Assembly (NCBI GenBank): GCA_963749445.1
Contig: CAVVMJ010000003.1
Coordinates: 128,715 to 192,714, forward strand
Direction of reading: 5' to 3'
Length of the DNA stretch: 64,000 bases
Source of the DNA: an uncultured bacterium
Lineage (GTDB): Bacteria; Patescibacteriota; Doudnabacteria; UBA920
Shown here: positions 4,152-57,118 of the stretch, piece by piece
Layout of the letters: every line of letters begins with the position of its first letter
Position numbering within the stretch: position 1 is the stretch's first letter
Made by a program: the position numbers and the translations under genes
Notes under the pieces: model-generated
Seen by the model: only the letters and a program-made list of their open reading frames with translations
What the model was told of the DNA's origin: nothing
The model's database searches: none

Positions 4152-4805
4152 ATGGATACTCTAAATATTTCCTTGCATGGAGCTAAGGAAAAAGAAGTTT
4201 TTGAATTTTTTAACCAAATCGTAAAAGAAACAACGATTGTATTTTTAAAAGATGTCTCTGGCGGGGACAGGATACCCCTTAGAATTCAAATGATTATAAC
4301 TTTTAGCTTAATAGACATTCTTGCAAGTTATTGGTTTGAATATTTAGAAAAGACAGGGACTCAACAAGAAAGATTTTGTTTATGGTATAAAACTTTCTGT
4401 AAAACCTATAGGAATAAAAAATATTTAAAAAATCAACAATGGAATATTCTCAGTAGTTCTCGTTTATATCAACTGAGAAACTCATTAGTCCATTTCTTTG
4501 GACTGTCTTCTAAAATAGAAAACATATACCTATCGCTAGTGCCAAATGATTTACCAGATAATGAAAAAAGTGATTTAGAAAAAAGATTGAACAACCATAA
4601 ATACAAAACCATAGTCATAAAGCCAAACGAATTTCACGAACTAGTCCGAGAAGGCGGCATACTTATGTTGGAGGACTGGCTAGAAAATGTAAGATTGGCA
4701 AACTCTGGAGACACTAATAAAAAAAATGCGCATATCAAGGGAATAAACAAAATATGGGAAAAAATACGATCTGAAGGTGCCTCAATAATTTTAAAAAAGA
4801 AATAA
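4152..4805 (+). CDS. AT-rich hypothetical protein with a HEPN-like Rx4H motif (possible Abi/toxin-like RNase).
   Basis: LYQLRNSLVHFFG contains R-N-x3-H. GC is about 30% against about 47% for the flanks. The start abuts the upstream PBP stop (TAA-T-ATG). Confidence 0.4.
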   Translation: MDTLNISLHGAKEKEVFEFFNQIVKETTIVFLKDVSGGDRIPLRIQMIITFSLIDILASYWFEYLEKTGTQQERFCLWYKTFCKTYRNKKYLKNQQWNILSSSRLYQLRNSLVHFFGLSSKIENIYLSLVPNDLPDNEKSDLEKRLNNHKYKTIVIKPNEFHELVREGGILMLEDWLENVRLANSGDTNKKNAHIKGINKIWEKIRSEGASIILKKK

Positions 4806-4808
4806 CCC

Positions 4809-4837
4809 AAAAGCTCAATCGGCACGGTTGAGCTTTT
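4809..4837. terminator. Bidirectional hairpin terminator between the convergent genes.
   Basis: aaaagctcaatcggcacggttgagctttt. Confidence 0.5.
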
Positions 4838-4862
4838 GAAAATACCTTAGTTATGGCTAAAT

Positions 4863-7800: not shown

Positions 7801-10800
7801 GCCAAATCCAAAGATTCGTTGTTTTCCGGCTGGACTTCCACGCTGCCCTGGCCGTAAACGTAAAAATCCTGCGTGGCGGTAATGGGATTGCCGCGGCTAT
7901 CGGCTGCCGTAAGCGCGACCTCATACTCGCCTTCCTGCCCGACCGTAAAATCCTTGGAAAAATTGCCGCTGCTGTCGGTCTGGGCCGTAAACTGCTGCAC
8001 CGTGTCTACCTGTTTTTCGGAATGATAGTAATAATTCCCGTCAACCTCCTGGCGCTTAAAATAGTTCCAGGTAATTTTGTTGACTTTGCCGCTAATATTG
8101 CCCACGGAAAGTTCTTTGCCCTGGGTATCCACGGTTTTGATTAAAATTTTATTGGCGTCATTTTTGCCAAAATAGCTCTTGTCCAAATTCACGCCCAAAT
8201 AAAACTGCCCGCGGTGCACAATGAAAGACTGCTCGTTGGACACAGCCTGTCCCGTGGTATTGGTTACGGTTACATCAACCACAAAAATTTTACTTTGATT
8301 TTGATTGTCTATGGAAAACAGTTTACTAAAATCCAAAACTTGGCTTATTTGCGCGTGACCCTGGGTATTTAACTGCGCTTTGCCGCGCAAAATAAAACTG
8401 TCGCCGTAGCCGGCATCGGGCTGGTAATACCAGCCGGCGCCGAACTGGAAATTTTGGTCCTGGTAGCGGTCAAAATAATAATCCTGGGCCGTGACCGTGT
8501 AATCCACGCTGCCGCCTTCCACGGGCACGCCAAAATAATAATTGGCGTCAACGCTTAGGTTGGCCGTATCGCCGGCAATGTATTCGGCCTTGTCGCTCTT
8601 TAAATCAACCTTAAACGGAGATGGCACGTAATCTTCCACGTCAAAAGTATAAATGCCGTCAAAAGCCTGGACGCGATAAGTGCCCAAGGGAGCATCCGCG
8701 GCCAAATGGAACACCGTGTTAAACGTACCGTTTTTACTGATGGCTAAATCCTCCGTGTCCACCTGTTCATTCTTGCTGCTAAAAATCTGCAGGGACGCGG
8801 TCTTGCCCGTATAAATTTCGTAAACGCCGTCGTAGCCAATGCGGTAAAGGCCCTTAATGTCCACTTCCTGGCCCGGACGATAAATCGGTCGGTCAGAATA
8901 AATGTAAGTTTTGTCCCCTCCCTGGTAAGGCGACGACCACTGAAATTTGTCGCTGTAGCCGGACACGATGGTGCTGTCATTGTCCTTGCCGATTACGGCC
9001 GCGCCGTTGCCGGCGTAAGCTTTGGCCCGGGCCACGCCGGAGCTGTCGGTGGTTGCGGTGTCAAACGCCAAATATTTTTTGTCCTGTTTTTGGAAGACTT
9101 GGATGGTGGCGCCCTCTACAGCGTTAAGTGAGCCGATTTGGGTTACCCAATACAAATTGCCCTGGGAAGATGACAACAACTCGCGCTCCGTGGCGCGTTC
9201 GGGCTGGACGGCGGCGGTTCCGGGAGAAGACGAAGTGTCGTCGCTGACTTCCACTTTCTTTTCCTGGGCAGCCAAATTGGTCACGTTCAAAAAAGTGCGC
9301 TCATAAATTGGCGGGCCGGGGCGGGTTTTGCCGGTGTTATAGTCGTAAATCTGCTGGCGCAGCTGCGGGTTGGAAAAACTTAAAACATAATAACCCAAAG
9401 GGCTGGGAACAATATCTGACAACTGCACCTGGAAATAATTCAACGTCCAGAATTTTGGCGGCAGGTCAATGCGCTTGGTCCAGGTCTGCTGGCAGTCCAG
9501 CGCGGAGCCGGCAATACCCGCATCCGGCTGGGTGTCGGGATCCAAATACCCGAGCATGGTTTGGCTGCTTACCTGGCAAACGTGCAAATCCAAATAATCC
9601 AAATTCGTGGCCGCGTAAGTGAGCTTGGTATGGCCGGGCGAAGTAACGTTGTAGCCCTTTTGCAGGGAATTAAAATCGGTGTAAGTGCTGTCAATTTTGC
9701 CGGAAGTAAAATTTAAATTTTGGCTCAAGCTTTGCCCAAACTGGTCAACTAAATTTAACTGCATCTGGTACTCTGTTTGCGGAATTAACCCGTAACGGAT
9801 CCGGTTGTCATACTGACCGGGCGAGCATTTTTCGTCAGCTGATCGTGAGCCAGTCTGCACCTTATAGGCCACATCCCAGTCCCATTTGCCCACGCTTAAA
9901 TTGGACTTGAGCCGCTGGTAAAAATTTTCCGGCTGGGCATCGTCCAGCGGAGAATTGGTGCAAATGATTAATCTGGTAACGTCTGCCGCCTGCTCACCCG
10001 GGGCAGGCGTGGTGCTTAACACCTTTAGCTGGGGGAAAATTTGCAGCGATTCCTTAATCGGGTCGGAGTTTAACTGCAGCCCTTTGGCATTAAAAATTTT
10101 TGTCAGCTCCACGTCAAAACTTTGTCCGGGCTGCCAGTTTTGATCTTTAAAACTTACCAGTAATTGCTTTTTATCGGTTACCTGCTTACATTGCCCGTCA
10201 ACATAAACCTCATTGCCGTCCGCGTCCAATTCACACCTTTGTCCGTAATCCACACGGTCCAAATTTTGCGCCGTAATTTGGGAACGGTCTTTGTCTATCT
10301 CCTCATAAAAATTCAAAACCAGCTGGCCTTTGGGGTCAAACATAGTGGGCTCGACCAAACTGGAACGGGAAGACGAAGCGCTTACTGACTCCACAATGTC
10401 GGGAACCTGCACCGCGGCGCTGCGGCCCTCGGACAAATTAATATCACCCTCCAGGGGAACGGCGCCGCTGATGTCTACCTGGTAATTGCTATTATTGTCC
10501 CAAAATTTGGCGCGGCCGAACTTGTCGGCTTTGGCAAAAATCAAAACCACGGATTTGTCGGTATAATCCGTTAAATTAACCGCCCCGCCCAAGCTCACGC
10601 CGCGGGTGCCATACTGGGTGACAAAGGGCACCGCATTGTTGGTCGCTAAATTTTTTACGGTAATCTGCGCGGTGGTTTTGGCCAAATCTACGGGTTGGTT
10701 AAAATCAATCTTAACCGGTTCGTCATATAATGTTACGCCATCGTGATGGATGGTATTTCCGGCAAACCGCAAGGGCCGCGTGGTAAACTGCGCCTGCGCC

Positions 10801-11525
10801 TGGGGCACAGGCAAGCCGTCCATAGATGTAAAACCGCTCTGTACCAAGACGGTATAATGGCTGGAGCGGGAAAGGCGCGCTGTTGGCGTAAACTCCAGCG
10901 TCCGCGTAGTCGCCCACTTAAATTTTCCGGCTGTTTCCGGAATGATTTTAACGGGCAGGGGCTTGGACTCCTGAACATCCAGCGTGCTTAGCGGCACCAT
11001 GGGCCGGTTAAATTCAATGGTAATGGCATCGGTCTCCGGCGCTTCTGAACCGTCTTTGGGAAAAATCGCGCTAACCTCCGGGTCAACATCGGCCTGGAAA
11101 TTTTGCGCCAAATGCACATCGCCGGCGGCCAAACTGACTTGGTAGTATTTGCCCGACTCCAGTTTGGCTGCCGGCTTAAAGACCAATTCAGTCGCCTTGC
11201 TGCCCACAGACCAGGTTCCTAAAAGTTTTGGGTCAAAACTAATTGCATCCTTGGCCTGATCCGAAGTCAAGCTGACTCCGGGTGGTAAATTAATTACTAC
11301 TGCCGCGCTTTGGGAAATTTTGGCCGCCACCAAGCCCACCGGCTCATCCTGCCATTTGGGCTGAATACTTTTAACATAAAAATAATTATACCCCAGCCAT
11401 CCGGCCGCTGCCACAATTAACACAGCGGCCGTCAACATAACGCCGCGCCTGTGGTGTCGCTTTAGCTGCTGTTTGTCTATTTCTGTCTCCTGAACGGGTT
11501 TTGCCGGAGCATTGGTTTCGTCCAT
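4863..11525 (-). CDS. Bacterial alpha-2-macroglobulin family protein (2220 aa, N-terminal membrane anchor).
   Basis: Thioester motif YPYGCTEQ; N-terminal TM after a basic stretch; very long run of MG-like beta-rich sequence. Confidence 0.8.
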   Translation of the reverse strand: MDETNAPAKPVQETEIDKQQLKRHHRRGVMLTAAVLIVAAAGWLGYNYFYVKSIQPKWQDEPVGLVAAKISQSAAVVINLPPGVSLTSDQAKDAISFDPKLLGTWSVGSKATELVFKPAAKLESGKYYQVSLAAGDVHLAQNFQADVDPEVSAIFPKDGSEAPETDAITIEFNRPMVPLSTLDVQESKPLPVKIIPETAGKFKWATTRTLEFTPTARLSRSSHYTVLVQSGFTSMDGLPVPQAQAQFTTRPLRFAGNTIHHDGVTLYDEPVKIDFNQPVDLAKTTAQITVKNLATNNAVPFVTQYGTRGVSLGGAVNLTDYTDKSVVLIFAKADKFGRAKFWDNNSNYQVDISGAVPLEGDINLSEGRSAAVQVPDIVESVSASSSRSSLVEPTMFDPKGQLVLNFYEEIDKDRSQITAQNLDRVDYGQRCELDADGNEVYVDGQCKQVTDKKQLLVSFKDQNWQPGQSFDVELTKIFNAKGLQLNSDPIKESLQIFPQLKVLSTTPAPGEQAADVTRLIICTNSPLDDAQPENFYQRLKSNLSVGKWDWDVAYKVQTGSRSADEKCSPGQYDNRIRYGLIPQTEYQMQLNLVDQFGQSLSQNLNFTSGKIDSTYTDFNSLQKGYNVTSPGHTKLTYAATNLDYLDLHVCQVSSQTMLGYLDPDTQPDAGIAGSALDCQQTWTKRIDLPPKFWTLNYFQVQLSDIVPSPLGYYVLSFSNPQLRQQIYDYNTGKTRPGPPIYERTFLNVTNLAAQEKKVEVSDDTSSSPGTAAVQPERATERELLSSSQGNLYWVTQIGSLNAVEGATIQVFQKQDKKYLAFDTATTDSSGVARAKAYAGNGAAVIGKDNDSTIVSGYSDKFQWSSPYQGGDKTYIYSDRPIYRPGQEVDIKGLYRIGYDGVYEIYTGKTASLQIFSSKNEQVDTEDLAISKNGTFNTVFHLAADAPLGTYRVQAFDGIYTFDVEDYVPSPFKVDLKSDKAEYIAGDTANLSVDANYYFGVPVEGGSVDYTVTAQDYYFDRYQDQNFQFGAGWYYQPDAGYGDSFILRGKAQLNTQGHAQISQVLDFSKLFSIDNQNQSKIFVVDVTVTNTTGQAVSNEQSFIVHRGQFYLGVNLDKSYFGKNDANKILIKTVDTQGKELSVGNISGKVNKITWNYFKRQEVDGNYYYHSEKQVDTVQQFTAQTDSSGNFSKDFTVGQEGEYEVALTAADSRGNPITATQDFYVYGQGSVEVQPENNESLDLAVANNKLEVGQAGQVVIKSPYDHAKALIAVERGRILDYQIVDINQNFYNYTFDVKDAYVPNVFVTVLLLSPKPEVKFGQAQFFIDTKQKTLTVDVTPNKNNYLPGEQVTLDVVTKDVSGKPVPADVSLAVADLSVLALSGNPKKDPVSFFYDGRPLGVTTSSNIKNILTEAEIPTGTKGGGGAAPEDLASKKRGVFKDTAYWNADVQTGSDGHAQVSFTLPDNLTTWQAEGVGLTQDTKLGVGYKEFKAQKELMVTPLVPRFVIPGDSFALGGKIFNQTGSAQTLQVSFTSSSLQMPDNKPQTVTLNAGDTKTVYVKAVAPASQQDGQHTLNITAKNDKYQDSVDSSFPVTPDQTYEAVATSNYTTNQTANEYVWLPDNVIPDRGGVQIEAQATLAGVLPGALKYLVDYPYGCTEQMISKLTAVATVKRFVSLKNLGDKFKMPQVQFDNQTYSADDVVSIGLSRIMSNQNSDGGFSYYPGMKSDYYLTLDVLNALEDLRQAKYKIDDAAETRAVAYAYQTWTGDYNLNRSKDSLILTAYTFSRVPSASQQFAALQPQIQALANDPKFFNEDISNLSLVYLALLSSAKQSSTFGNQVFQTLENRVVVDGRGAYLTTGDQNLLWYYYETPVKDTALLLKAESLAQRQFSETDKMLRWLQNSRAKDGSWGSTDGTVTVMDALVDYLQWKGETESSFTLNLLLDTKPQANFTFNSQTILDSLQSFIPISSFTPNKLSVLQFNKQNLNDKTNGFYYDMTLKYFLPVNSIAPRDEGFAISRELYALDDTVNKTPLNQAKVGQVLRAHLTLTVSKPRNFVTVESFIPAGMELVNFNLATENQTLNQQYLTTPAYGYENAQAGQNVPTKTVQLKRPGFFTRSWLWIKGLFVRQSSTVPGTTAVADLPDEVYSGNLTTTDSLIPDSVEYHDDRLMLFNQNLQPGVYEYDYYVRALIPGQFQHLPAVASELYQPDHFGRTRGEIFTITQ

Positions 11526-13111: not shown

Positions 13112-16100
13112 CTAATTGTGAATCGACACAGTGTTAGTCGGGTAATTGACAATCAAGCTGCCGGAAAGGCCGCTGCCGGCGCCGTTTACATCGTTAAAAG
13201 TCAAAACACCGGCCGAGCCAGGGCTTAAGGACAGGCTCGCGGAATTTGCAGTTATCGCGGTAACCGGAATATAGATATCGTAAGTTTTGGAAGCTCCGGC
13301 CGCAATCGTATTGCCGCCATTAAAAGTCAAATTTAATGTTCCGCCGCTAGAATTGCCAAATACGCTGGAATTGGAAACAACTTGGCCGGTTGCGCTATCT
13401 ACGGCTGTTACCGCGTTGGTGGTACTGATTGTTGCGCCCGATACGGTAACGCTGATTGGCAAAGCGGTCAAAACAATGTTGCCGGAAGCGTTGGCATTGA
13501 CCACTACGGATGCGACTTTTACCGATCCTGTTGTTAGAGAACTGTTGGAAGCAACCAAACTTAAAGTTGGGTAAGAACCCACTACTTTCATAGTGTTGCT
13601 ATTAACATTGGCGGTTGCGGTTTGGGTAATGCCTCCAGATGAATATTTGATGGAACTTAAAGTAATATAGGACGTGTTCCCGGAAGGTATGCCGTTAGCT
13701 CCGACAGAAGCATAATTTACGGAAACAGGTATGTTTGCGCCCGCGTAGCCGGCCGGAATGGGAAGGTTTAATCCCGTAATCACGGCCGTGCCGCCCACCA
13801 CCGGAGCCGTCAAGTTGCTGACTAAAACTGAGGTAATGCCACTGCCGGAAACAGTGAACGTCAGTTGCTGGACGGTCACGGCAGAAGAAGCGGCGAGATT
13901 ATAGACCGCGATTGGCGCGCTCATTGAGCCGCCGACAATGAACTGCGAAACTGGCGACATCGCGCTGAGCGTGGCGCTCAATGACGTCGAAACTGCTCCC
14001 TGCACTGTTACCAACTGGCCTCCCAGGGGAATTATTGCCGGATAGGTTTGATTATTGACTGAGGATTGCGCGGTTATAGAACTTAAAGTAATAAAACTCT
14101 GATATTGGCCGGTAATGTTAGTGGGGCTAAATGTCACATCAACATAGATATTAAGATATATCGTCGCTTGGGGCGCTATTACCAAAGGATTCGTCGACAG
14201 ACTGAATGTGTAGGTATTGCCGTTGCTGGGACTCGGCACAGCAGAACTCAACTGAGTCGTGCCCGACATAAGCTTTAAATTCTGAAAATTACCCGTGACG
14301 TTACTATTGGAAGTTTGGAGGGTAATTTGTTTTACTAAAGCAGATTCATTATTACTGTTATTCTTTAAAGTAAACGCGGCAATCATCTGGTTTAAGTTAT
14401 TAGTGCTAACCTGGAGACTGTTAGAGCCGGTTGTGGCCGCAGTTAAACTTAAATTTGAAGTACTGCCGCACGTGCCGGCGATCTGGTCCAGCGGCGCGTT
14501 GCAGCCTTGCTGTTTCATCGACACCACGCCGACCTGGCTTAAGGCCTGCTCCGCGCTATTGGCCGCCACGACATTGGCAAAACTAAAACCCCAGGAATTA
14601 AAAATGGCAACGCTCGGAAAACCGTACAAGCCGTTTTGTCCAACCAACTGCACCGTGCCATTGTTGTTTATGATAGTGCCGGGACGAATAACCGCGGAAT
14701 CGCTGACTTTGACGTAGCTATTATTGCTCGACGTTCTTCCGGAAGAATCGGTAGCATAAACCATAATATTATAGATACCGGAACTCTGCCAAGTATGGCT
14801 GATGGTAAACGATAAACCTGTAGGCTTATCGTTGCCGGTTTGTTTTTGAGATCCATCTCCCCAATCTACGGTGTAAGAAATTGTATATCCTGCGGTAGTA
14901 CTCGGGTTGGCCACGGACATAACATAAAAACTGCTCACGCCCGACATTACGCTGGTCGGACCGGTAATAATCGGCGGGGTTAAAGCGGAAACGGTAGAAC
15001 CGCACGCGTTGTTAATTTGGCTTAAAGGATCGCTACAGCCGACCTGCTTCATCGGCACCGTGCCGATTTGGCTTAAGGCCTGCTCGGCGCTGTTGGCGGC
15101 CACTACCTGGCTAAAGCTCCAGCCCCAGGAATTAAAAGTCGCGATGTCCGGGATGCCGTACAAACCCTTGCTCCCCACCAAATAAACCGTGCCGCCGTTG
15201 GTAAACACCAGTTGGCCTATGCGGGCGCCGCTAATAGGTACAGCGGCAACTGAAAAATTCGCACTAGAACCAAAATTAACGGTAGCGCTGTTATCCCCAA
15301 CGCCAACAACACTTGCTGAATAATTTCCAGCCGCTCCGGAAGAAATATCCGCGCGGACGGCATAATAAACCGCCTGGCCATCCTTAATCAATTGCGGCGT
15401 AAATGAAAAGTCGTACTGAGTATTGTTATTTGAATTACCTGTAAAAACATTTTTTACCGCGGCAACAAAATTACCATTTTGATCGTAAAGCCCAACATTG
15501 GAAAATTGACCGGTAACGTCTCCCGGGCTAATGGCCACCGAATAATCTCCCAAGTTCAGACTTGTGCCGCTTAGTCCCACGCTGAACGTGAACAAATTAG
15601 CGCCGGTTGTGCCCGCAATTATTTTGCTAGCAGGTGAAACGGAAAAATTAACAGTTCCGATTTTAGTTGAGCCGCACATGCCGTTAATCTGGCTAATGGC
15701 ATCGCTGCAAGCCGGATTGCGGGAAGGCACCCAGGTGCCGGAAACCGGCAAGGCGGATTCGGCGGCATTGGTCGGCAGGACGTTGGCAAAAGACCAACCC
15801 CACGAATTAAATACCGCTACGCTCGGGATTGGATACAAAACACTCTGGCCAACTAAGTAAACGGTTTTATCAGTCTTATAAACCAACTGGCCAACGCGTG
15901 CGCTAACGGATGTTCCTAAAGTCACGGAAAAAATTTGGGCATTACTGGTACCATTAGCGTTAGTTACGACCACCGAATAGTCGCCAGGGATAACACTAAC
16001 TATGTACTGCGGGCAAGCCGTACCAACCGCGCAGTGCGGCGCTAAAGTTTCGGGAATGGTAAATTGCAAAGTTTTGCCGTCGCTGGAAGTTAAGTTGCTG

Positions 16101-18928
16101 GCCACTTGATAATTCCTCATGCTCACGTTGTTTCCGGTGGAAGCAAAACCGCTGCCGGAAACTGTCACCACAGTGCCCACCGGCCCGGATGCGGGATTTA
16201 ATGAGTTGATATTGACAACGCTGTTAGTCGGATTAACCAAACTAAAACTTTGACTGGTATCCGGGACGCCATAACAATGGGCCGGGTAACTATTAGTGCA
16301 CATTTGTGGCCCACTAATGGTCAGGGTATAGTTGCCAACTGACAGATTGTTGCTAATGGTCCAACTATAACTGCCGGTGTTGGGAGCGGTGGTGGTCAGA
16401 CTATAGTTGCCGGAAGCACCAGTTAAAACAATGCTTAATGGGTAACCACCGGTGGTACTCGCATCCCAGGTAATCATATGAATACTGCCAAGTGCCCACT
16501 GCTCGCCACCGGCCGGGGAAAAAATCTTGATTGAAGTGGAACTGGCGGCAGAAACTATGGTAAACGCACCGCTAGTGCCGCCTACTACATAAGTACAGAT
16601 GGTTCCACCATTATTAGCTGTACAATTATTTACCGGATATGAAACCGCCACCTTATAATAGTTTGACGCGCCCATTGTGCCGAATGTCGGACTTGCGATT
16701 GTCCAAGCATAAGATCCATTATTTGGAACATTGGATGCAATAACTTGATAATTAGTACATGCGCTTATCATGGCAGGGGTACAATCAGTACTGCTGACCA
16801 ACTCTATATTAACTGTGGGAGAAGCCGAGCTATTAGGTACCCAAGTAACTATATGGGTAGATCCAACCGCCCACTGTTCTCCACCGGCCGGGATAGTGAC
16901 GCTAACTGTCGATTGGGAAGAGCTGCACGTGCCGTTAATCTGACTAATGGCATCGCTACAGGACGGATTGCGGGAAGGCACCCAGGTGCCGGAAACCGGC
17001 AACGCGGCTTCTACGCTGTTGGCCGCGGATACTTGGCTGAATGTCCAGCCCCAGGAATTAAATACCGCTACGCTGGAAATCGGATACAAAACATTTGAGC
17101 CGACCAAGTAAACGGTTTTATCACTCTTAAAAACCAACTGGCCAGTACGAACACCAATGGTCGCTGACCCGTTTACAGTAATAGTAAAAGTATTGGTGCC
17201 AATGTTGCCGTTGGTGTCCACCGCTTTAAGTTGGAACGTATATGTGCCGGCCGTAGTCGGCGTGCCGGAAAGAGTGTAAGTGTTGTGATAATAAGCTGGG
17301 CAAGCGGCTCCCACCAGACAAGCCGGTATCGGATTTTGACTTAAAGACAAACCGGGAGGTAAATTACCGTCCGACGTCATTGTGTATTCCGCGTTGGATG
17401 GGGATATATTTAAAGTCGCCATATAATACTGCCCGACCGTAGCTGTAGACGACGGCCCAGCAATAGTAATCGTCTGGGTTGGAGAAATTGATTGAGTGAT
17501 AACAAACGGCGCATCGCTCTTGTCGTCCGAAATGCTGTGGTTATCCTGAATCCAAGCCTGATAATATCCCGACGGAATGGTATGGCCATAAGCATCATTG
17601 CCCTGAACCGTCCAGTTAAATGAACCGTTGTTGGGTTCATTAGATCCCAAGTTATACAAACCGTTGCCGCAGGAGCTGACGCTGGAATTGGCGCATGGAA
17701 TCAAATAAAGATGGATTAAATAGCTTGGATCGTCGCCGGTCCACTGGATATTTAAATTTGATCCCGTGACAAACTTCTCCCCGCCGTTCGGGCTTAAAAT
17801 TTTCAACAGGCCGGCCGCCGGAACCGGGTTAACGGTTATTGTGGCGGGAACCTGCCCTAAAACATTAAACGCATAACCGCCGCCAAAGGTGGCCACTATA
17901 TAATACGTGCCGGACGGCAAGTTACCGACTGTAGCGGTAAACATCCCGTTAAGCCCGTTTGGAGCGCTGCCCACAATCTGCGTAATGTAATTTGCAACAT
18001 CTTGCCGATAGGAAGGAACGGGGGTAGTTACGGCTGCCGGATACGAAACTCCGGTCGCGCTGTTTACTAATTTAATATTGATATTTAAATTGCCGCCATT
18101 ATTATAAGCCCAGCCGGAAACCATAACACTGCCCGGAGCCGTGGCGCTGTAAGAAGACATGGATTCCAGCCAGCCTTCTATTAAACTATTGCTGCCCTGG
18201 CCGTAATGCGGGGTGGTATAGCCGTAAGCCGGCGGAGGCGTTGGACAAACGATAATCTGGCAACCATTATTATCATATTTATCATAACAACCGTTCTGGG
18301 GAACTGCGGTCGGAACCGCACATGTCGGGCTTGGCTTGGCCGGAGCGGTAATATTTAAAGATGTCAGTTGCTGTAAGCGGCTGCCGATTTTTTTATATAA
18401 AATAAAAGTGTAGGTTTGGTTGGGCAACAAGTCATTGCCGGTATAGCCCGAGCCGGAACCGGTAATACCATCCATAAACGGCCAGCTGTTAACCTTTATG
18501 GCGCCGGTAATGCCGCCTTGCAGCTGATAATCAACCTTAACCTGCCAGCCGTTGCCGGAAAAACCGATAAGCTGATAAGTTAAACAGTTGACGGTATTGT
18601 AGCCGCACACGGGCTGGTTGTAGCCGTAAGTGGCCACGCCCAAAACCCGGGGGGTCTGGACGGTGGTATTAAACGCGCCGGCTAAAATGCCTTCTGCTCC
18701 GCCGGACAGTTCGGTTTGGGCAACCATGGTGAGCGCGCCGACTGAAGTGGCGGCAAACAGCACAAAAGCAATGGCCGTAATCGAGCTAATTTCCGCGTTA
18801 AAAATAGATCGCACAAAAGACCAGGTGCCGCTGGCTGTAGCGCTGGTTTGTTCCCGGGCTTGGCTTAAGTGCCTGCCGGAGATTGCGTATGGGTTCATGG
18901 AAAAACCTATTTCCGCGCAAACAGACAA
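13112..18928 (-). CDS. Giant Ser/Thr/Asn/Gly-rich cell-surface protein with tandem ~80-aa repeat modules and a PKD-like segment.
   Basis: N-terminal TM/signal; at least 4 copies of the module GQLVxKxDKTVYLVG...FNSWGWSFxxV...CSDxxSQINGxCGS; VDWGDGS (PKD-like); two modules are about 85-90% identical at DNA level (about 15670-15900 and 16925-17165). Confidence 0.7.
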   Translation of the reverse strand: MSVCAEIGFSMNPYAISGRHLSQAREQTSATASGTWSFVRSIFNAEISSITAIAFVLFAATSVGALTMVAQTELSGGAEGILAGAFNTTVQTPRVLGVATYGYNQPVCGYNTVNCLTYQLIGFSGNGWQVKVDYQLQGGITGAIKVNSWPFMDGITGSGSGYTGNDLLPNQTYTFILYKKIGSRLQQLTSLNITAPAKPSPTCAVPTAVPQNGCYDKYDNNGCQIIVCPTPPPAYGYTTPHYGQGSNSLIEGWLESMSSYSATAPGSVMVSGWAYNNGGNLNINIKLVNSATGVSYPAAVTTPVPSYRQDVANYITQIVGSAPNGLNGMFTATVGNLPSGTYYIVATFGGGYAFNVLGQVPATITVNPVPAAGLLKILSPNGGEKFVTGSNLNIQWTGDDPSYLIHLYLIPCANSSVSSCGNGLYNLGSNEPNNGSFNWTVQGNDAYGHTIPSGYYQAWIQDNHSISDDKSDAPFVITQSISPTQTITIAGPSSTATVGQYYMATLNISPSNAEYTMTSDGNLPPGLSLSQNPIPACLVGAACPAYYHNTYTLSGTPTTAGTYTFQLKAVDTNGNIGTNTFTITVNGSATIGVRTGQLVFKSDKTVYLVGSNVLYPISSVAVFNSWGWTFSQVSAANSVEAALPVSGTWVPSRNPSCSDAISQINGTCSSSQSTVSVTIPAGGEQWAVGSTHIVTWVPNSSASPTVNIELVSSTDCTPAMISACTNYQVIASNVPNNGSYAWTIASPTFGTMGASNYYKVAVSYPVNNCTANNGGTICTYVVGGTSGAFTIVSAASSTSIKIFSPAGGEQWALGSIHMITWDASTTGGYPLSIVLTGASGNYSLTTTAPNTGSYSWTISNNLSVGNYTLTISGPQMCTNSYPAHCYGVPDTSQSFSLVNPTNSVVNINSLNPASGPVGTVVTVSGSGFASTGNNVSMRNYQVASNLTSSDGKTLQFTIPETLAPHCAVGTACPQYIVSVIPGDYSVVVTNANGTSNAQIFSVTLGTSVSARVGQLVYKTDKTVYLVGQSVLYPIPSVAVFNSWGWSFANVLPTNAAESALPVSGTWVPSRNPACSDAISQINGMCGSTKIGTVNFSVSPASKIIAGTTGANLFTFSVGLSGTSLNLGDYSVAISPGDVTGQFSNVGLYDQNGNFVAAVKNVFTGNSNNNTQYDFSFTPQLIKDGQAVYYAVRADISSGAAGNYSASVVGVGDNSATVNFGSSANFSVAAVPISGARIGQLVFTNGGTVYLVGSKGLYGIPDIATFNSWGWSFSQVVAANSAEQALSQIGTVPMKQVGCSDPLSQINNACGSTVSALTPPIITGPTSVMSGVSSFYVMSVANPSTTAGYTISYTVDWGDGSQKQTGNDKPTGLSFTISHTWQSSGIYNIMVYATDSSGRTSSNNSYVKVSDSAVIRPGTIINNNGTVQLVGQNGLYGFPSVAIFNSWGFSFANVVAANSAEQALSQVGVVSMKQQGCNAPLDQIAGTCGSTSNLSLTAATTGSNSLQVSTNNLNQMIAAFTLKNNSNNESALVKQITLQTSNSNVTGNFQNLKLMSGTTQLSSAVPSPSNGNTYTFSLSTNPLVIAPQATIYLNIYVDVTFSPTNITGQYQSFITLSSITAQSSVNNQTYPAIIPLGGQLVTVQGAVSTSLSATLSAMSPVSQFIVGGSMSAPIAVYNLAASSAVTVQQLTFTVSGSGITSVLVSNLTAPVVGGTAVITGLNLPIPAGYAGANIPVSVNYASVGANGIPSGNTSYITLSSIKYSSGGITQTATANVNSNTMKVVGSYPTLSLVASNSSLTTGSVKVASVVVNANASGNIVLTALPISVTVSGATISTTNAVTAVDSATGQVVSNSSVFGNSSGGTLNLTFNGGNTIAAGASKTYDIYIPVTAITANSASLSLSPGSAGVLTFNDVNGAGSGLSGSLIVNYPTNTVSIHN

Positions 18929-19083
18929 GCCCTGATTTTGGAGCTTAGCGTTCGCGCTGTTTAATTTTATTTTTGTTTCGATCTTCGGCTGTTTTGGCCA
19001 AAGAAAAAGTTTTTAACTTCTGAATATATTATAGCACATTTAAAAAAATTTGTCCAGCGTATGCGGAAAAAATTATTACCTAT

Positions 19084-19172
19084 CATTGCGAGTGCAGCCG
19101 AAGCAATCTTATCCAAGCTCAAGAAAAAGATTACCGCGTCGGCCAGTTAAAGCCCTGGCCTCCTCGCAATGA
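19084..19172. repeat. Family-B palindromic element (copy B3).
   Basis: attgcgagtgcagccgaagcaatc ... ggcctcctcgcaatg; the first motif is identical to the one in copy B2. Confidence 0.6.
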
Positions 19173-19331
19173 CACTGATAATTGCCAAAATTTAATCAAA
19201 TAGAAAACCGCGCTCGCACATCATACCCAAAGGTACAATGCGCTCACGCGGCTTTCGAGCCTAAAGAGAAGAAGCTTCTGTCCGCCGAGGCGCTTTAGGC
19301 TAAGCGCGCGGCGGGGTTGGCCGATGATGGC

Positions 19332-20471
19332 CTATTGCTGCTGAACGGCGTTCGTCACCGGCGGGTACAGAGCCGCATCCGCCATATTAGGCGCGAACTC
19401 GCGCGGCAAAAACGTATATGCCGCGTTGGGTTGGGTAAAATCGAATGCCCACAGTTCGTTGCCACCTTCGTGATACGCGTCCCCTTGGGCATAAATCGAA
19501 ATATATGCCACGCCCTTGGAGACGAAGAAGGTATGTGGACCAAACTGCACGCCATTCAACATCCCACCTGTAAGCAACGGCACAGCGTTGACAAACGGCC
19601 CTTGCGGCCCAAGTGCCTGCTGTAGCTGGATGATCTGACCGGGAAAGGATGGTCCTGTGGAAACCGAGGGTAAACAGGGATCCGAGCAGGTCTGATTGTT
19701 GCCGCCCTGCACCACCGCGAGCAACACATAGACCTGATTCTTTTGGTCGTTTGTTGCTAACCCCACGGCGTTGCTAGTGGGCACGTGATAGTAAATCTGA
19801 GCCTGGCGACTGTTGGACTTGAGCAAAACCACATCCTGATTCACGATGTCGAGCGTGTACAGGTCGCCATTATTCAGATATATACCACTTGCGATGCCGT
19901 AACCGACAGAGCGCAAACCAGAACCACTTTGGGCATTAACCTGGTTCGTGTCCACAAACTGCTGGAGTACAAACGGGTTATTGATGCGCCCGAGGGTGAC
20001 AGAGTTGGAAGCCTGGGCTATCAAGGCATCAGCGAGACCAACCGTGGGATACTGATCGATGCTGCTGGCAAATCCCTGGCCGTTATCCTGAATGCGACTC
20101 AGGCCTTTGGAACTGAGGGCGAAAATCGTGCCCCCCAAGGCAATGCCGCACTTTTGGAAGTCCTGGCCCGGCAAATCGGTTACTATAGTCATGGAGTCAA
20201 CGCGCGTTTTCTGGCGCGCACCCCACACTGCCCGTAGCACGCCATCGTAACCGCACACTAAAACCACATCGCGGTCCGTGGGCAAGGTGAATGACTGAAC
20301 CAGCGGGGTGGCGACTTCGGCCTGTCTGCGAGCAGCATGCATTTTGTGCTCCGCCGGGTGCGAAGTCCAGACTCCGGCGTTGCGATTCCAGACTTCCATA
20401 CGGTCCTGGGCGAGAGCGCCAACGCATAGCAGCGCCAACGCAAGAACTACTGTCAAAGATCTTTTCGTCAT
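19332..20471 (-). CDS. Secreted hypothetical protein (signal peptide, beta-rich), part of a GC-rich island.
   Basis: MTKRSLTVVLALALLCVGALAQD signal peptide. GGAG SD upstream. Local GC about 55%. Confidence 0.5.
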   Translation of the reverse strand: MTKRSLTVVLALALLCVGALAQDRMEVWNRNAGVWTSHPAEHKMHAARRQAEVATPLVQSFTLPTDRDVVLVCGYDGVLRAVWGARQKTRVDSMTIVTDLPGQDFQKCGIALGGTIFALSSKGLSRIQDNGQGFASSIDQYPTVGLADALIAQASNSVTLGRINNPFVLQQFVDTNQVNAQSGSGLRSVGYGIASGIYLNNGDLYTLDIVNQDVVLLKSNSRQAQIYYHVPTSNAVGLATNDQKNQVYVLLAVVQGGNNQTCSDPCLPSVSTGPSFPGQIIQLQQALGPQGPFVNAVPLLTGGMLNGVQFGPHTFFVSKGVAYISIYAQGDAYHEGGNELWAFDFTQPNAAYTFLPREFAPNMADAALYPPVTNAVQQQ

Positions 20472-20813
20472 TGTTGAAACACTCCGTTTTGTCAAATTTG
20501 GTTGTCTCCCACCACTGGGTCTGGGGCAACTAGCTATATTGCCCCCGAAAAAATAAATGTCTACGGCTGGATCCAGGATATTTTTTGCGGCCCTCAATAA
20601 TCATCGGCACAAAAAATTCCGGGATGGACAGCATTAAGACATCCACTTTTCCGGGGACAAACTTCTTTTCTTCTCTTCTAAAATCCTCCTAAAACTTATA
20701 AAAGTACTAAAAATCGCATAACCCACAATTTGGGACTATGACGTATAATTATACACCAAATTGCTTATTTTGTCAAGAATATTATGCTCTTGAATTAGCC
20801 TAAATTAAATAAA

Positions 20814-20871
20814 ACCCGCTTATTCAGCGAGTCTTAATCTTTAAATCTTTCAATTTTCAATCTTTCAATCC
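20814..20871. repeat. Family-H direct repeat (copy H2).
   Basis: cgcttattcagcgagtcttaatctttaaatctttcaattttcaatctttcaat, matching 22604-22729. Confidence 0.6.
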
Positions 20872-20997
20872 CCGATAGACATAAGGAAAGCAGGCGACAC
20901 TGGAGTGAACGCCTGCCTATGCCTCCAAATATTGATGTTACCGGTCGGAGTCCGGCCAGCCTCCCGCTCGCGCAAAAGCAGGGGCTGTAGGGAAAAC

Positions 20998-22510
20998 CTA
21001 AGACTTCTTGCGGAATAGCCAGTGAACGGTAATACTACCGTTCTTCGTCCATGAAAACCGCAAATGTTTGGACCCGCGGCTCACCTCGCACCCCTCTGGA
21101 CTGAACGACGGCGCTTGATAGTACTTATGCGTATGGAGTGACGGGCGGTCCCATCCCTCTTCCGCCAAAATCCGCACATGGAGTATGACTAAGCGCCGTT
21201 CCTCGGAACCCAAATCATCAAGCGCCTCAAAAAAATGAGGGCTGTACTCGACAGAGCCGTCATCGTTCTGCCATCTATAACTGTCCGGCAGGGTAAGAGG
21301 CTCATCAGCTCCAAGGGAGGCAATATTATCACCATGTTGCCCGACGAAATCATCAAGGTTAGCGCTATTCGTTTCTTCCTCGTCGGTCAGCTGTGCCAGT
21401 TGTAAAGCCTTGTGCATCAGCCGCAGCGCTGTCTTGAAGTCCCCTGATTTTTTCGCGGCTTCTGCCGAAGCGCGCAAGGTTACTGCTTCCGGATCTAAAG
21501 CAAATCCTTGTTCGCGTGCCGCAAGCTGAAGCCTTAAATATTCCTGCTCACGCCAAACCAAACGTTCTTCCGCGCTTGGCTTTGCATAAGCACCGGTTAC
21601 AGGACAAACCTTTGACTCGACTGTAACACGAGCTACACGACACTTGACTCGAAGCCGATAAAGCCTGCGCTTGGAGTCCAACAATTTCTGCGTGGCTTCC
21701 TCGGCCAGCGCGGGGAGCGAGCCCAACGCGAAGCGAAGGAAAGAAAGGCATAAGCGCGTCTGTTTCCGCCGATCGTTCCAATTCCCCTGCGAATGCTTGG
21801 AACAGAACGAACCGGAAGAACCTAAAGTACAGTTGACGAAGAACGACAAAAACAGCTATTAGAAAACCCATACTTATCATCGCAACCATACTTGAATATC
21901 TAACAGCACTTTCGTCGCGGGAATGATTGGATTCTAATGCGGCACGTTTAGCCTGAAAAGCCTGCTCCGAAGCTGTGTGCATAGTCTCGATTAAGGCTTG
22001 AATTTGAGACTGTGACACATCCAGACCCTTAAGCTGCCACTGTCCCGGAGGCATTCCGCCAAAACTCAATTTAAGTTCATCCAATGCCCTCTGGTTACCA
22101 TCATAGGTTCCGTCCGTGTTCGCCGGAAAATCCAACATCGCCATAATTGAACGAGGGCGGGATCCGGTTCCACACATACCTTCAAACACCTGTGTGGAAG
22201 ATGTACGCCCAACGATGGTATCGGTTTCCTGACACAAAAAAACCTTAACGGTCTTCCGGTCAGGTTCAAGCGCCAACGTTCCGTAAAGCTTTGGAAACGC
22301 CGGTAGGCTCAAATTCTCCAACACCGCCAATCGAATAACCGGCTTGGGGCGGGGAACAGGCCGGGTGGCGAGCAACTGGCTCATCCAGCTATTGTAGCTG
22401 GACAGAGACTTGCTCGCCCCGGCCAACCACACTGTCGAAACGACAAGCACTACCGCAAAAAAACATAGCAGCAGCGCGCAAGCATTGCGCCATCTTCTTA
22501 TCTTTTCCAT
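20998..22510 (-). CDS. Two-TM membrane protein (periplasmic domain + cytoplasmic coiled-coil domain) that appears as two overlapping ORFs. Probably a single gene with a frameshift near 21850.
   Basis: The TM helices ALLLCFFAVVLVVSTVWLAG and MVAMISMGFLIAVFVVL are followed by junk-like sequence that overlaps the next ORF in another frame. A GGAGGA SD sits 5 nt before the start. GC about 55%. Confidence 0.45.
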
Positions 22511-22603
22511 CTCGTCCTCCGACGAATTTTAGATAAAAACCATCTCTTTCGAGACATACTATTATGCCTGAATTTAGTGCATTTGTAAAGACCTAAAATA
22601 CAA

Positions 22604-22729
22604 AAGCCTGCTTATTTAGCAGGCTTCAATCTTTCCCTCCTCCGCTTCACCCTTCGCTAAAGCTATGGGTGACAAGAAAGCTTCGGAGGGCAAGCAATCT
22701 TTCAATCATTCAATTTTCAATCTTTCAAT
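22604..22729. repeat. Family-H direct repeat (copy H1, with an internal hairpin insertion).
   Basis: ctgcttatttagcaggcttcaatcttt ... caatctttcaatcattcaattttcaatctttcaat. Confidence 0.6.
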
Positions 22730-22732
22730 TAC

Positions 22733-24388
22733 TTAGCCTTCCCCTGCAACTCTAAACACTTCCTCCACATCCGTCATCCCGTCCAGCGCTTTTAACAAAC
22801 CATCCTGCAGCATAGTAATCATCCCCTGCTTAATTCCCTCTGCCCTAAACTCCGACATTGGCGCTTCCTTCATTACCAGCTGCTGGATGGCGTCGGTGAC
22901 TTCCAAAATTTCATAAATGCCCACGCGGCCGAGGTAACCGAGATTGTGGCATTTATCGCAGCCCGGGCTGTGGTAAAATTGCAGCTCCTTCGGCAGGCTG
23001 ATGCCCGAAGTTTTGGGGATTTGTTTTAAAACGTACATGATTTTTTCCAAAACCGTGGGTGACAACGCGGTCTTGATTTTGCAACTCTGACAAATCCGAC
23101 GAACCAATCTTTGCGCCAGCACGGCCGAAAGCGCCGGGCCGATAATAAAAGGTTTGACGCCCATATTAATCAGGCGCGGAATGGCCCCGGCCGCATCGTT
23201 AGTGTGCAAAGTGGACAGCACCAAGTGCCCGGTCAGCGCGGCCTGGAGCGCCACCTCGGCGGTTTCCTGGTCGCGGATTTCGCCGACCATCACCACGTCC
23301 GGATCCTGCCTTAAAATCGCCCGCAGGCCTTTGGCAAAATCAAAATCCGCGGTGTGGTCAATGGGCGTTTGCACAATCCCTTCCAATTTATATTCCACCG
23401 GGTCTTCCAAAGTGATAATTTTGACGCCCGGCTGGTTAAGCTCGTTCAAAAACGCGTACAGCGACGTGGTCTTGCCGCTGCCCGTGGGGCCGGTGGTAAT
23501 TATCGCGCCGTTGGGCTTGTTTAAAATGCGGTGCAAAATATCCTGGTGCTGCGGCCGGAAACCCAAATCCGTCAAATGTAAATTTATAGCGCCGGTGCCG
23601 AGCAGACGCATCACGATTTCTTCACCGTAAGCGCTGGGCAGGACGGAGACGCGCACGTCAATAGGTTTTTTTAGATAAGAAAAGGTGATGCGCCCGTCCT
23701 GGGGCACGTTTTCCACGTTGAGTTTAAGTTTGGACAAAATTTTAATGCGAGTGACCAAGGACCGCTGCAAATCTTTGCTGATGTGCAGCATATCCTGCAG
23801 CACCCCGTCCACGCGGAAGCGCAATTTCACAAAATGCTCCTCCGGCTCCAAATGGATGTCGCTGGCTTTATAAAACACCGCGGCGCCGAACATGGTTTCC
23901 ATCAGCTGGGTGGCGGTTTTTTTCTTTTGCTCGTCTTCTTGCCCCAGCGCCTTGATCTCGGCAATAAAATCCCTCTGTGTGTCCACCCGCACCTCTTCCT
24001 CGTGGGCGGCCTTGGGCCGCATGACCTTACTATAAAACCTTAAAGTCTGAACCAGGCTTCTTTGGGATATCAAATACAGGCTGACCTTGTCGCCCTGCTT
24101 TTTGAATTCCGTAATTTTTTCCTGCAGCATAGGATGTTCCGGGTCGGTAACGCCAATGCGCAAATCCGTCAGCTCCTTATAGAACGGCAGGGCGCCCATT
24201 TCCTTGGCTTCTTCTTCGGTAAACAAACCGAGCACGTTTAAATCCACGGGGAAATTATGCAAATCAATGTAAGGCAAACCCTTCGATCCTGCCTTGGCTT
24301 TGGCTTCCTCTTCAGCCATCTGGCGATTGACGTCATCCAGGGTAGACTGCAATTCCTTAGGCGTACTGGCTAAAAAATGCTTGCTCAT
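22733..24388 (-). CDS. pilB: Type IV pilus/type II secretion assembly ATPase (PilB/GspE family).
   Basis: Walker A GPTGSGKTTS, and the C-terminal zinc-binding tetracysteine motif (CQSC...CDKC) typical of GspE-family ATPases. Confidence 0.85.
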   Translation of the reverse strand: MSKHFLASTPKELQSTLDDVNRQMAEEEAKAKAGSKGLPYIDLHNFPVDLNVLGLFTEEEAKEMGALPFYKELTDLRIGVTDPEHPMLQEKITEFKKQGDKVSLYLISQRSLVQTLRFYSKVMRPKAAHEEEVRVDTQRDFIAEIKALGQEDEQKKKTATQLMETMFGAAVFYKASDIHLEPEEHFVKLRFRVDGVLQDMLHISKDLQRSLVTRIKILSKLKLNVENVPQDGRITFSYLKKPIDVRVSVLPSAYGEEIVMRLLGTGAINLHLTDLGFRPQHQDILHRILNKPNGAIITTGPTGSGKTTSLYAFLNELNQPGVKIITLEDPVEYKLEGIVQTPIDHTADFDFAKGLRAILRQDPDVVMVGEIRDQETAEVALQAALTGHLVLSTLHTNDAAGAIPRLINMGVKPFIIGPALSAVLAQRLVRRICQSCKIKTALSPTVLEKIMYVLKQIPKTSGISLPKELQFYHSPGCDKCHNLGYLGRVGIYEILEVTDAIQQLVMKEAPMSEFRAEGIKQGMITMLQDGLLKALDGMTDVEEVFRVAGEG

Positions 24389-39456: not shown

Positions 39457-39906
39457 ATGAAAAACGTGAAAGTGGTTTTGTTTTGTGAGAGCTCTCAAGG
39501 ATTTGAGGATCTTTTGTGGGGTGACCGTGGATGCCTTCGCGCGGACTACCAACGCCTGTCGGGTGTCGAAGTAGAAGCCCGGGGATTTGGGGGAAATCTG
39601 GTAGATACCAATGGCAAACCCAATGAGAACGGGAAAGCTTTTTTGGAGGCCTGCAAAACTGCGGACGTGCTCGTCACGGACGCTTGGACTGGCACATCGA
39701 TGTACACGAATACCGAGGAACCCTTAGCCAGGATGGCTGAGATGGTGTGGAGAGCGAAAAAGCTCAATCCCCGGCTGGTGGTGTTCGGCGACTTGCTTGA
39801 AGGCGAGCACGAGACAATTCTCCACCAGATGTACGGCGCAACACCGATCAGGCACTGGCGGGACAAGAAGATCATCGAAGCGGTCAAAAAGGCCGCTCTC
39901 ACGTAG
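39457..39906 (+). CDS. Hypothetical Rossmann-like protein in a foreign-looking cassette (possibly nucleoside 2-deoxyribosyltransferase/SLOG-like fold).
   Basis: Strong SD AAGGAGGAG; GC about 55%; alternating beta/alpha pattern VKVVLFCES...ADVLVTDAWTGT...RLVVFGD. Confidence 0.3.
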   Translation: MKNVKVVLFCESSQGFEDLLWGDRGCLRADYQRLSGVEVEARGFGGNLVDTNGKPNENGKAFLEACKTADVLVTDAWTGTSMYTNTEEPLARMAEMVWRAKKLNPRLVVFGDLLEGEHETILHQMYGATPIRHWRDKKIIEAVKKAALT

Positions 39907-52432: not shown

Positions 52433-52507
52433 GGGCGCATAGCTCAGCGGTAGAGCAATCGTCTTATACACGATCGGCCCTAGGTTCGAATCCTAGTGCG
52501 CCCACCA
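52433..52507 (+). tRNA. tRNA with anticodon UAU (Ile, AUA-decoding), with encoded CCA.
   Basis: Cloverleaf folded by hand: acceptor gggcgca/tgcgccc, D arm gctc-agcggta-gagc, anticodon arm atcgt-cTTATac-acgat, T arm ctagg-ttcgaat-cctag. A terminator hairpin follows at 52511-52540. Confidence 0.8.
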
Positions 52508-57029: not shown

Positions 57030-57118
57030 GAAATTGCGAGGAGCCCCGACTGCATCGGAGGGGCGACGTGGCAATCCCTTAATCAGTGGGATTGCTTCGG
57101 CTGCACTCGCAATTTCAC
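57030..57118. repeat. Family-B palindromic element (copy B2) upstream of rpsA.
   Basis: gaaattgcgaggag...gcaatccc...gggattgcttcggctgcactcgcaatttcac. Confidence 0.7.

Follow-up and report, generated by a model that had tools for sequence, protein, structure and literature searches.

A variable accessory-gene site downstream of pilB in an uncultured Doudnabacteria genome, probably holding two independent transcription units, one of them for a membrane-anchored protein with a predicted RelE-type fold

The transmembrane toxin ToxM of type II toxin-antitoxin modules belongs to the BECR-fold (RelE/ParE) superfamily, and combines an N-terminal BECR domain with one central transmembrane segment and a C-terminal periplasmic domain; it is encoded together with an antitoxin (Gerdes 2025, mBio, PMC11980606). 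It is the closest described architecture to that of A/B, a protein encoded downstream of the pilus ATPase gene pilB in a 64,000-nucleotide (nt) stretch of contig CAVVMJ010000003.1 from an uncultured Doudnabacteria genome, the whole of which is referred to here as the window. Both proteins would place a RelE-type domain on the cytoplasmic side of the membrane, to which it is tethered, and join it to an extracytoplasmic domain. Unlike ToxM, however, A/B has the reversed order of transmembrane segment, ectodomain, transmembrane segment, helical linker and RelE-like domain; there is no adjacent antitoxin gene, and the RelE/ParE-family models of Pfam are blind to its domain. As a rare membrane-anchored form of the RelE fold, with a domain order opposite to that of ToxM, A/B would widen the range of architectures in which this fold occurs.

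Three further kinds of system offer themselves for comparison. The monodomain toxins (ribosome-dependent mRNA endonucleases) RelE, YafQ, YoeB and HigB match the A/B domain in fold and size, with 9lew_B, 1wmi_A, 4lsy_A, 4mmj and 2a6r as the best matches. Yet the A/B domain has no sequence-level similarity to them, is fused to about 390 upstream residues, and has no relB-, dinJ- or yefM-like partner. With hotspots of accessory and defence genes, the site after pilB shares conserved core flanks and a content that is different in each relative, including an AbiE pair in one of them. Unlike such hotspots, it is very small (one or two genes), has no recombinase, and keeps its promoter and leader while the coding sequence behind them is exchanged. 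Finally, A/B resembles genes inserted by Campbell-type or homology-facilitated recombination in being bracketed by target-derived direct repeats of about 105 nt, but differs from them in that neither an att core nor an integrase or a circular form came to light, so that the mechanism considered below is drawn from the structure of the repeats alone.

The reading that we favour, and hold to be the likelier one, is that the region 3' of pilB is a hypervariable accessory-gene site of a probable candidate phyla radiation (CPR)/Patescibacteria lineage, which in the window contains two independent transcription units and not one island. On the minus strand the order is pilB, a 222-nt intergenic region with a repeat termed H1, two overlapping open reading frames (ORFs), a 526-nt intergenic region with a second repeat, H2, and a further gene, ORF C. 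Beyond ORF C lie a palindromic element (19083-19173) and then the promoter and gene of a 1,938-residue surface protein. The features that make up the first unit and its repeats are the following, in window coordinates:

22733-24388, minus strand: pilB, type IV pilus/type II secretion (T2SS-E) assembly ATPase; Pfam T2SSE (E 5.6e-124) and MshEN
22603-22730, minus strand: repeat H1, pilB 3' region; array 22696-22730, insert 22628-22695, terminator 22603-22627
22561-22589, minus strand: promoter-like site of A/B, TTTACA-17-CATAAT, matching the consensus at 10 of 12 positions
22511-22555, minus strand: 5' leader of A/B; hairpin GUCUC-GAAA-GAGAU at 22542-22555, then a U-run at 22535-22539
20998-22510, minus strand: A/B gene, one coding sequence of about 503 codons, interrupted by one inserted nt within or beside the T-run 21744-21746
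20881-20917, minus strand: terminator-like hairpin of A/B, GGCAGGCG...CGCCTGC with a T-rich tail, read from the sequence
20810-20871, minus strand: repeat H2; (ATTGAAAR)n array 20837-20871, terminator hairpin and T-run 20810-20836

An initial reading of this DNA, the first-pass annotation, had described a GC-rich island of three genes beside pilB. The neighbour was correctly named, but the region contains two genes, A/B and ORF C, for the ORFs 22510-21548 and 21849-20998 form a single gene, as that annotation had itself thought probable when it proposed one frameshifted ORF with two transmembrane segments. The joined translation matches full-length homologues: with it, P0002 was found (515 residues, 38% identity, 100% coverage), and an exhaustive HMMER search added P0007 (521 residues). 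Both are uninterrupted and run colinear with A/B, without a gap, across the junction of the two ORFs. What breaks the frame is one surplus base, either in CC-TTT-C at 21744-21746 or the adjoining C, and removal of one T yields the product ...LMPSFLRFALGS..., which matches LMPGFL.F of the homologues. The public annotation divides the gene into products of 320 and 139 residues.

The 3' end of the gene is also altered. The A/B protein of the window terminates at WLFRKKS*, where nearly all family members go on with ...RKGDSRVRQSEA, and the conserved C-terminal tail GDSRVRQSEA is absent. With its 1-nt frameshift and missing tail in the assembled genome, A/B is probably in decay, or else varies within the population. 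L005, a Logan contig of independent origin (run ERR10755942), is 100% identical to window positions 21745-19088. It starts with the longest suffix common to the T2 and T3 alleles, exactly at the frameshift site, which is a hint, although not proof, of a sequence variant (T2 versus T3) in the reads. The contig ends inside the palindromic element, and it independently gives the order A/B (3' part), H2, ORF C and palindrome at 100% identity.

A/B appears to be equipped with expression signals of its own. Its promoter-like site lies at the same distance from the preceding terminator as does the slot promoter of relatives, described below. In its leader, the core GGAG of the Shine-Dalgarno (SD) sequence GGAGGA occupies the loop of a small hairpin, CGUC-GGAG-GACG (22513-22524). 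Both leader elements, namely the hairpin with its U-run and the SD hairpin, are found upstream of the homologue in L004, where P0002 stands in an unrelated context adjoining a sortase; the first hairpin and its U-run are found upstream of the homologue in L006. The terminator-like hairpin of A/B lies inside a 127-nt spacer before H2, and was missed by the terminator scan because its loop exceeds 8 nt.

The N-terminus of A/B is basic and is followed by a first transmembrane segment at about 22418-22483 (residues about 10-31), an ectodomain of about 175 residues in which two cysteines are invariant in a three-way comparison, and a second transmembrane segment at about 21827-21889 (residues about 208-228), after which basic residues again occur. 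According to the positive-inside rule, the N-terminus would thus be cytoplasmic, the ectodomain outside, and the C-terminal region of about 275 residues cytoplasmic. This last region comprises a helical linker and a conserved domain of about 110 residues (21001-21345).

The C-terminal domain is confidently modelled as a RelE/ParE (BECR) fold of the order beta-alpha-alpha-beta-beta-beta. The AlphaFold2 model, built on a 33-sequence alignment, has a mean predicted local distance difference test (pLDDT) of 90.7, and in a Foldseek search against the PDB all leading matches were toxins belonging to the RelE/ParE superfamily: YafQ (9lew_B, E 2.8e-4), an archaeal RelE (1wmi_A), HP0894, YoeB, HigB and ParE2. 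These had a probability of 1.00, with target-normalised template-modelling scores of up to 0.74 for the best of them; Cami1, a larger protein (379-residue chain), stood further down the list. The structure prediction therefore points to a RelE-type domain, and not to the PilN/PilO likeness that had been suggested for the proteins of this locus.

At sequence level, the domain falls outside the curated collections. A/B matched no RelE, ParE, YafQ, YoeB or HigB model of Pfam or NCBIfam at E values up to 1; its family profile matched no PDB sequence, the PADLOC search was likewise negative, and hhalign gave the alignment of the domain with Escherichia coli RelE a probability of 0.3%. A third, word-indexed homology search with the profile of the C-terminal domain returned solely the window's own annotated ORF of 139 residues. 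The domain nevertheless recurs in 90 clusters (50% identity) among 1.84 billion representatives. Most members of this family (P0008-P0094) are about 360 residues long and have no transmembrane segment; they have a conserved N-terminal domain with the pattern MA.(H/Y)FL...SP.Y...RRR..V...L...Y, then a coiled coil and, at the C-terminus, the RelE fold, and neither Pfam nor NCBIfam has a model for them. One member, from a metagenome-assembled genome of the Patescibacteria, carries the NCBI name "ZapB", which looks like a misnomer brought about by the coiled coil. As the sole family member with a named source it suggests, together with the gene content, that the organism of the window is itself one of the CPR/Patescibacteria. 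The family of about 90 clusters is thus unannotated and has been missed by curated profile libraries. In the three contexts of 360-residue members that were examined, the genes are solitary, without a partner gene, in housekeeping neighbourhoods (SecG/UvrC; SecE-NusG-L11-L1). Conserved in the family are R90, R96, F97, W99 and an RKGDxR tail, which are candidate catalytic residues; the copy in the window is without this tail. By its modelled fold, the A/B domain might act as an RNase or toxin.

The repeats on either side of A/B are as real as the first-pass annotation held and are longer than it recognised, but they bracket the single gene A/B and not a two-gene core. H1 consists of an (ATTGAAAR)n array with 8-nt periodicity and an intrinsic terminator (hairpin and T-run), between which a palindromic sequence of 68 nt, bounded by AAAGATT, has been inserted (22628-22695). 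Once this insert is removed, H1 aligns with H2 over about 107 nt (about 105) at 79% identity with a score of 107, compared with 32 +/- 5, and at most 53, for shuffled sequences. The homology of H2 to H1 runs on to about 20770, and the similarity that follows the array is significant by itself. The arrays are identical at 32 of 34 positions, the 22-mer GATTGAAAGATTGAAAATTGAA occurs twice in the window (once in each repeat, with 0 occurrences expected), and the terminator stems differ in sequence with their pairing kept. H1 and H2 are best read as a duplicated pilB 3' region: each copy has an A/T-rich array with an 8-nt period, then an intrinsic terminator and a spacer. H2 is the counterpart of the pilB terminator of relatives, and its own terminator resembles that of pilB in L001 and L007. 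In pairwise comparison, H1 and H2 score 105 with each other, whereas either scores only 31-79 with its orthologous counterpart in any relative; the sampled relatives had therefore already split off when the duplication arose.

The array is not diagnostic of a mobile element when taken alone, because such arrays are widespread across phyla. A scan of a genome collection found (ATTGAAAR)n in intergenic DNA of Prevotella, other Bacteroidota, several CPR groups and further phyla (L009-L079), frequently as inverted pairs that form long hairpins. The exact 35-mer of H1 is also present in Kordia algicida (L010).

The nature of the site becomes apparent from its relatives. When metagenomes were scanned with pilB, 13 loci were recovered in which pilB is 65-82% identical and the synteny VanW-TsaE-DHH-pilB is kept; with L001 and L007 added, the sequence downstream of pilB is long enough for a judgement at 14 loci. 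A/B follows pilB in none of these 14. In L001 and L007, orthologues of ORF C (50% and 56% identical) come directly after pilB, with one copy of the terminator and no A/B. The comparison of empty sites that had been recommended as a check thus bears out the absence of A/B from every informative relative and fails for ORF C, which two of them possess. Elsewhere the content of the site differs again: L088 and L095 have a family termed X1 (37% identical to each other), L083 and L086 a family termed X2, L092 and L094 a small ORF, and L084 and L085 no gene at all between pilB and the gene of a surface protein beginning MNPY. In L087, whose pilB is 75% identical, an AbiEi/AbiEii toxin-antitoxin (abortive infection) pair follows pilB immediately (4728-6213), which means that the site accepts defence-type cargo. 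On its left, the variable site is anchored by the conserved pilB.

The second unit of the window, and the right boundary of the site, comprise the following features; the corresponding leaders of relatives are given below them:

20748-20776, minus strand: slot promoter, perfect TTGACA-17-TATAAT
20472-20747, minus strand: conserved structured 5' leader of the slot gene; motif 20668-20704, long hairpin at about 20536-20660, SD GGAG at about 20481-20484
19332-20471, minus strand: ORF C, a secreted protein of 379 residues, the resident slot gene; homologues P0004-P0006
19083-19173, no strand assigned: Family-B palindromic element, resembling miniature inverted-repeat transposable elements or repetitive extragenic palindromes; dG -42.9, z -4.6; between the ORF C terminator and the next promoter
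19028-19056, minus strand: promoter of the giant surface-protein gene, TGGACA-17-TATAAT with TG; conserved right boundary of the slot
13112-18928, minus strand: giant surface-protein gene, 1,938 residues; internal repeats, MNPY... N-terminus with signal anchor
L083 6985-7220, L006 1795-2000, L095 7752-8024 and L001 9864-10000: slot leaders in relatives, motif and hairpin
L007 1030-1208, L088 5210-5372, L086 1944-2165 and L089 7755-8200: slot leaders in relatives, motif and hairpin

ORF C, X1 and X2 encode proteins of about 370-390 residues with signal-peptide-like N-termini and no detectable mutual similarity. In ORF C, this N-terminus reads MTKRSLTVVLALALLCVGALAQD. The homologues P0004-P0006 are 74, 56 and 50% identical, and no match to ORF C was obtained in Pfam, NCBIfam, PADLOC or the PDB. 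The earlier description of the protein as secreted agrees with its N-terminus; that of a beta-rich protein finds an echo only in a low-confidence AlphaFold2 model from four sequences (pLDDT 40.9). In the same four collections, A/B, ORF C and the relatives' slot proteins gave coiled-coil noise at most, the AbiE pair apart.

What the unrelated slot genes do have in common is the DNA in front of them. The slot promoter is conserved in L083, L086, L088, L095, L089, L001, L007 and L006, and the slot genes of the window and of these same eight loci share a leader in which a long, almost perfect hairpin comes after the motif CTTTWWAW..GGAGGAT..AGARAAGAAA; the arms of this hairpin vary in sequence between loci. 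The hairpins fold with z scores of -4.7 to -5.7, and 0 of 200 shuffles did as well; this evidence comes from the folding of each sequence separately, for MAFFT alignments lose their register where the hairpin varies. The motif, searched as a regular expression through about 900 kb of fetched DNA, matched at this site only. Rfam holds no family for the leader: at E values up to 1, a search of 18900-22800 gave sub-threshold, terminator-like matches only, and a scan of the whole window at gathering scores returned the tRNA only. Small ORFs within the ORF C leader were considered and rejected, since the window, L083 and L006 share no conserved reading frame there.

On the far side of the slot, a comparable promoter and MNPY... 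N-terminus were found in L001, L084 and L085. Homologues of the 1,938-residue protein follow the slot in L084, L085, L088 and L006, and the counterpart in L001 has just 268 residues. On the far flank of pilB are a DHH-family gene, tsaE, a VanW-like gene and ruvB. The palindromic element next to ORF C, of the type TCATTGCGAGG...GATTGCTTCG...CTCGCAATGA, is a strong palindrome, but it is a dispersed repeat, with a second, partial copy at 57090-57115, and not the edge of an island. A Family-B-like element interrupts the slot leader of L089 at about 8055-8125; the 68-nt palindrome within H1 is of another kind.

The base composition and SD sequences of the region, which had been cited as signs of foreign origin, appear from the relatives to be conserved traits of the locus rather than marks of recent import. 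The figure of about 55% GC given for both genes holds for ORF C, which at 55.4% has the highest GC content of the 50 genes of the window (z 1.8) and ordinary codon usage; it does not hold for A/B, whose two halves have 49.8% and 53.2% (about 51.5%), close to the 51.9% of pilB itself. In every relative, slot genes have a GC content of 0.55-0.60 against 0.45-0.53 for their neighbours, and whichever family occupies the slot, the gene is 7-10 points richer in GC than pilB and its other neighbours; since the high GC is common to the slot genes of all relatives, it is no mark of recent import. Strong SD sequences are indeed rare, a core of at least 5 nt being present in 3 of the 50 genes, A/B among them (4-nt cores, in 7 of 50, are near the random background, which is 6.6% of positions), but they too are conserved with the homologues, and the orthologues of ORF C also carry SDs. 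At a resolution of 1 kb, the region is indistinct from the rest of the window; of the mid-size genes, A/B is the one whose codon usage deviates most (B 0.39, z 7.5). For genome scanning in general, this is a caution that GC content and SD sequences which look foreign can be locus-specific traits conserved in relatives.

The absence of A/B from the relatives, its deviant codons and the closeness of H1 to H2 together fit a recent insertion. The first unit (22589-20881) would then be a single-gene insertion of about 1.7 kb with its own promoter, leader, SD hairpin and terminator, bracketed by two copies, of about 105 nt each, of the pilB 3' control region. Given this bracketing, pilB would terminate at H1, and A/B at its own hairpin and at H2. 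The duplication could have arisen on integration of a close relative's DNA, with the recombination anchored either in pilB or in its 3' region, possibly by homology-facilitated illegitimate recombination or by a single crossover of a circle. A/B was probably acquired from a related CPR organism, and is now frameshifted and truncated. The second unit (20776-19332) would be the resident slot gene ORF C, independent of the A/B insertion, and one of at least three unrelated families of GC-rich secreted proteins of about 380 residues that share the same conserved promoter and leader at this site. The hotspot would thus run between two conserved boundaries, pilB together with its terminator, promoter and leader at one end and the promoter of the gene for the surface protein at the other. 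Of the integrated foreign cassette proposed at first, the part that survives is A/B, which fits a recent insertion, and the part that does not is ORF C, a resident also in L001 and L007.

Several observations weigh against this interpretation. No recombinase or mobile-element gene is present at the site: between 18.9 and 27.7 kb there is no ORF or Pfam match for an integrase or transposase, and there is no tRNA target nearby, the sole tRNA of the window being at 52433. Viral contigs and phage and plasmid records hold no relative of A/B, of its C-terminal domain or of ORF C. The RelE likeness of A/B is one of fold only, with curated sequence families unmatched, and no antitoxin candidate or small ORF adjoins A/B in the window, L004 or L006; an antitoxin domain could conceivably be fused within A/B itself. 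The frameshift in A/B could be an assembly error, and the junction of pilB, H1 and A/B is given by a single assembly. Finally, the arrangement in L006 means that A/B may be an old resident of the neighbourhood and not a recent arrival, because a homologue of A/B (P0007, 34% identity) lies there directly upstream of the slot leader, which is followed by a distant relative of ORF C (26% identity, E 0.001) and by a giant-protein homologue (E 6e-29). The L006 contig ends 98 nt upstream of the A/B homologue.

It is because of L006 that the strongest alternative retains some weight, although we regard it as distinctly the less probable. According to this alternative, A/B is ancestral at the site, and the relatives have lost it by recombination between the direct repeats, the window representing the full state and L001 and L007 the deleted one. 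Besides the order of genes in L006, the three copies of A/B are only 34-38% identical, which suggests a long residence in the lineage, and a leader hairpin of the A/B type stands upstream of all three (for the SD, the window and L004 were checked); direct repeats some 105 nt long are, moreover, substrates for deletion. However, with A/B missing from all 14 informative relatives, many independent losses would be needed, and an old duplication should have diverged, whereas H1 and H2, with arrays matching at 32 of 34 positions, are far closer to each other than to the relatives. The codon usage of A/B, the most atypical among mid-size genes, likewise speaks for its insertion.

An involvement of these genes in the pilus, either in its biogenesis (as PilN/PilO-like components) or as a pilus-tip adhesin that functions together with pilB, is improbable. 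Type IV pili of CPR/Patescibacteria have been connected with attachment to hosts and with the uptake of DNA, and adjacency to pilB, the secreted protein of about 380 residues in the slot of most relatives, followed by giant surface proteins, and a conserved leader suggestive of regulated expression would all be in keeping with such a role. For A/B, the case is effectively refuted by its two transmembrane segments and cytoplasmic RelE-fold domain; none of the genes has a Pfam match to PilN, PilO or PilM, and the neighbours are not pil genes; PilN and PilO proteins would also have a single N-terminal transmembrane segment and genes beside pilM. Furthermore, L084 and L085 have nothing in the slot, and L087 has the AbiE pair there, so that the content of the slot is not required for the function of pilB.

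Still harder to sustain is the original idea that three genes (A, B and C) came from a foreign donor as one GC-rich, SD-bearing cassette, with the Family-H repeats and the Family-B element as its edges. The flanking repeats exist, the content of the site varies among relatives, ORF C has the highest GC of the 50 genes, and the strong SD of A/B is rare in the window. Yet this idea is largely refuted by L001 and L007, in which ORF C directly follows pilB without A/B, and the repeats enclose A/B only. Richness in GC is common to the slot genes of all relatives, the promoter and leader of ORF C are orthologous to those that precede unrelated genes elsewhere, Family B is dispersed, with its other copy at 57090, and neither an integrase nor a tRNA target is at hand.

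Least probable of all is that the frameshift is programmed (+1 slippage at UUU-C, where tRNA-Phe could re-pair in the +1 frame) or that the arrangement is an artefact of repeats, which can mislead assemblers, given that P0002 and P0007 are uninterrupted, that the T-run has just 3 nt, and that L005 both breaks exactly at the site, pointing to a sequence variant, and reproduces the order from the 3' part of A/B to Family B at 100% identity.

Under the favoured reading of a variable site with two units, this swap-prone position after pilB would be a concrete place to study variation of the surface and host-contact repertoire in CPR/Patescibacteria. As a conjecture, to which we attach only modest weight, the conserved promoter and leader might form a dedicated expression slot in which unrelated, GC-rich secreted proteins of about 380 residues are exchanged by recombination, diversifying the repertoire by which an episymbiont presents its surface and contacts its host, and proteins such as A/B might form a class, not described before, of membrane-tethered RelE-fold effectors that couple an extracellular sensor to translation-linked cleavage of RNA.

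Some further features of the window were observed at a distance from the site. The only other genes with a strong SD (AGGAGG) are 39457-39906 and 40033-40446 on the plus strand, with about 54% GC and no Pfam match; that they encode pilins was considered and rejected on reading their sequences. Across the window, a strong SD, a higher GC content and the status "hypothetical" go together. Most genes of the window are without an SD, and a -10-like box lies 4-12 nt before the start of 9 of the 50 (18%, against a random background of 8.8%), which is suggestive of leaderless mRNAs at a frequency only about twice the background. A second giant protein, of 2,220 residues, is encoded at 4863-11525 on the minus strand. 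The gene with the most foreign-looking composition in the window, exceeding the region considered here by far in this respect, is an ORF of 217 residues at 4152-4805 on the plus strand, with a GC content of 30.9% (28% at third codon positions), the strongest codon deviation in the window (B 0.58) and no Pfam match. The tRNA at 52433-52507 on the plus strand is a tRNA-Ile with the anticodon TAT (UAU), an uncommon bacterial way of reading AUA.

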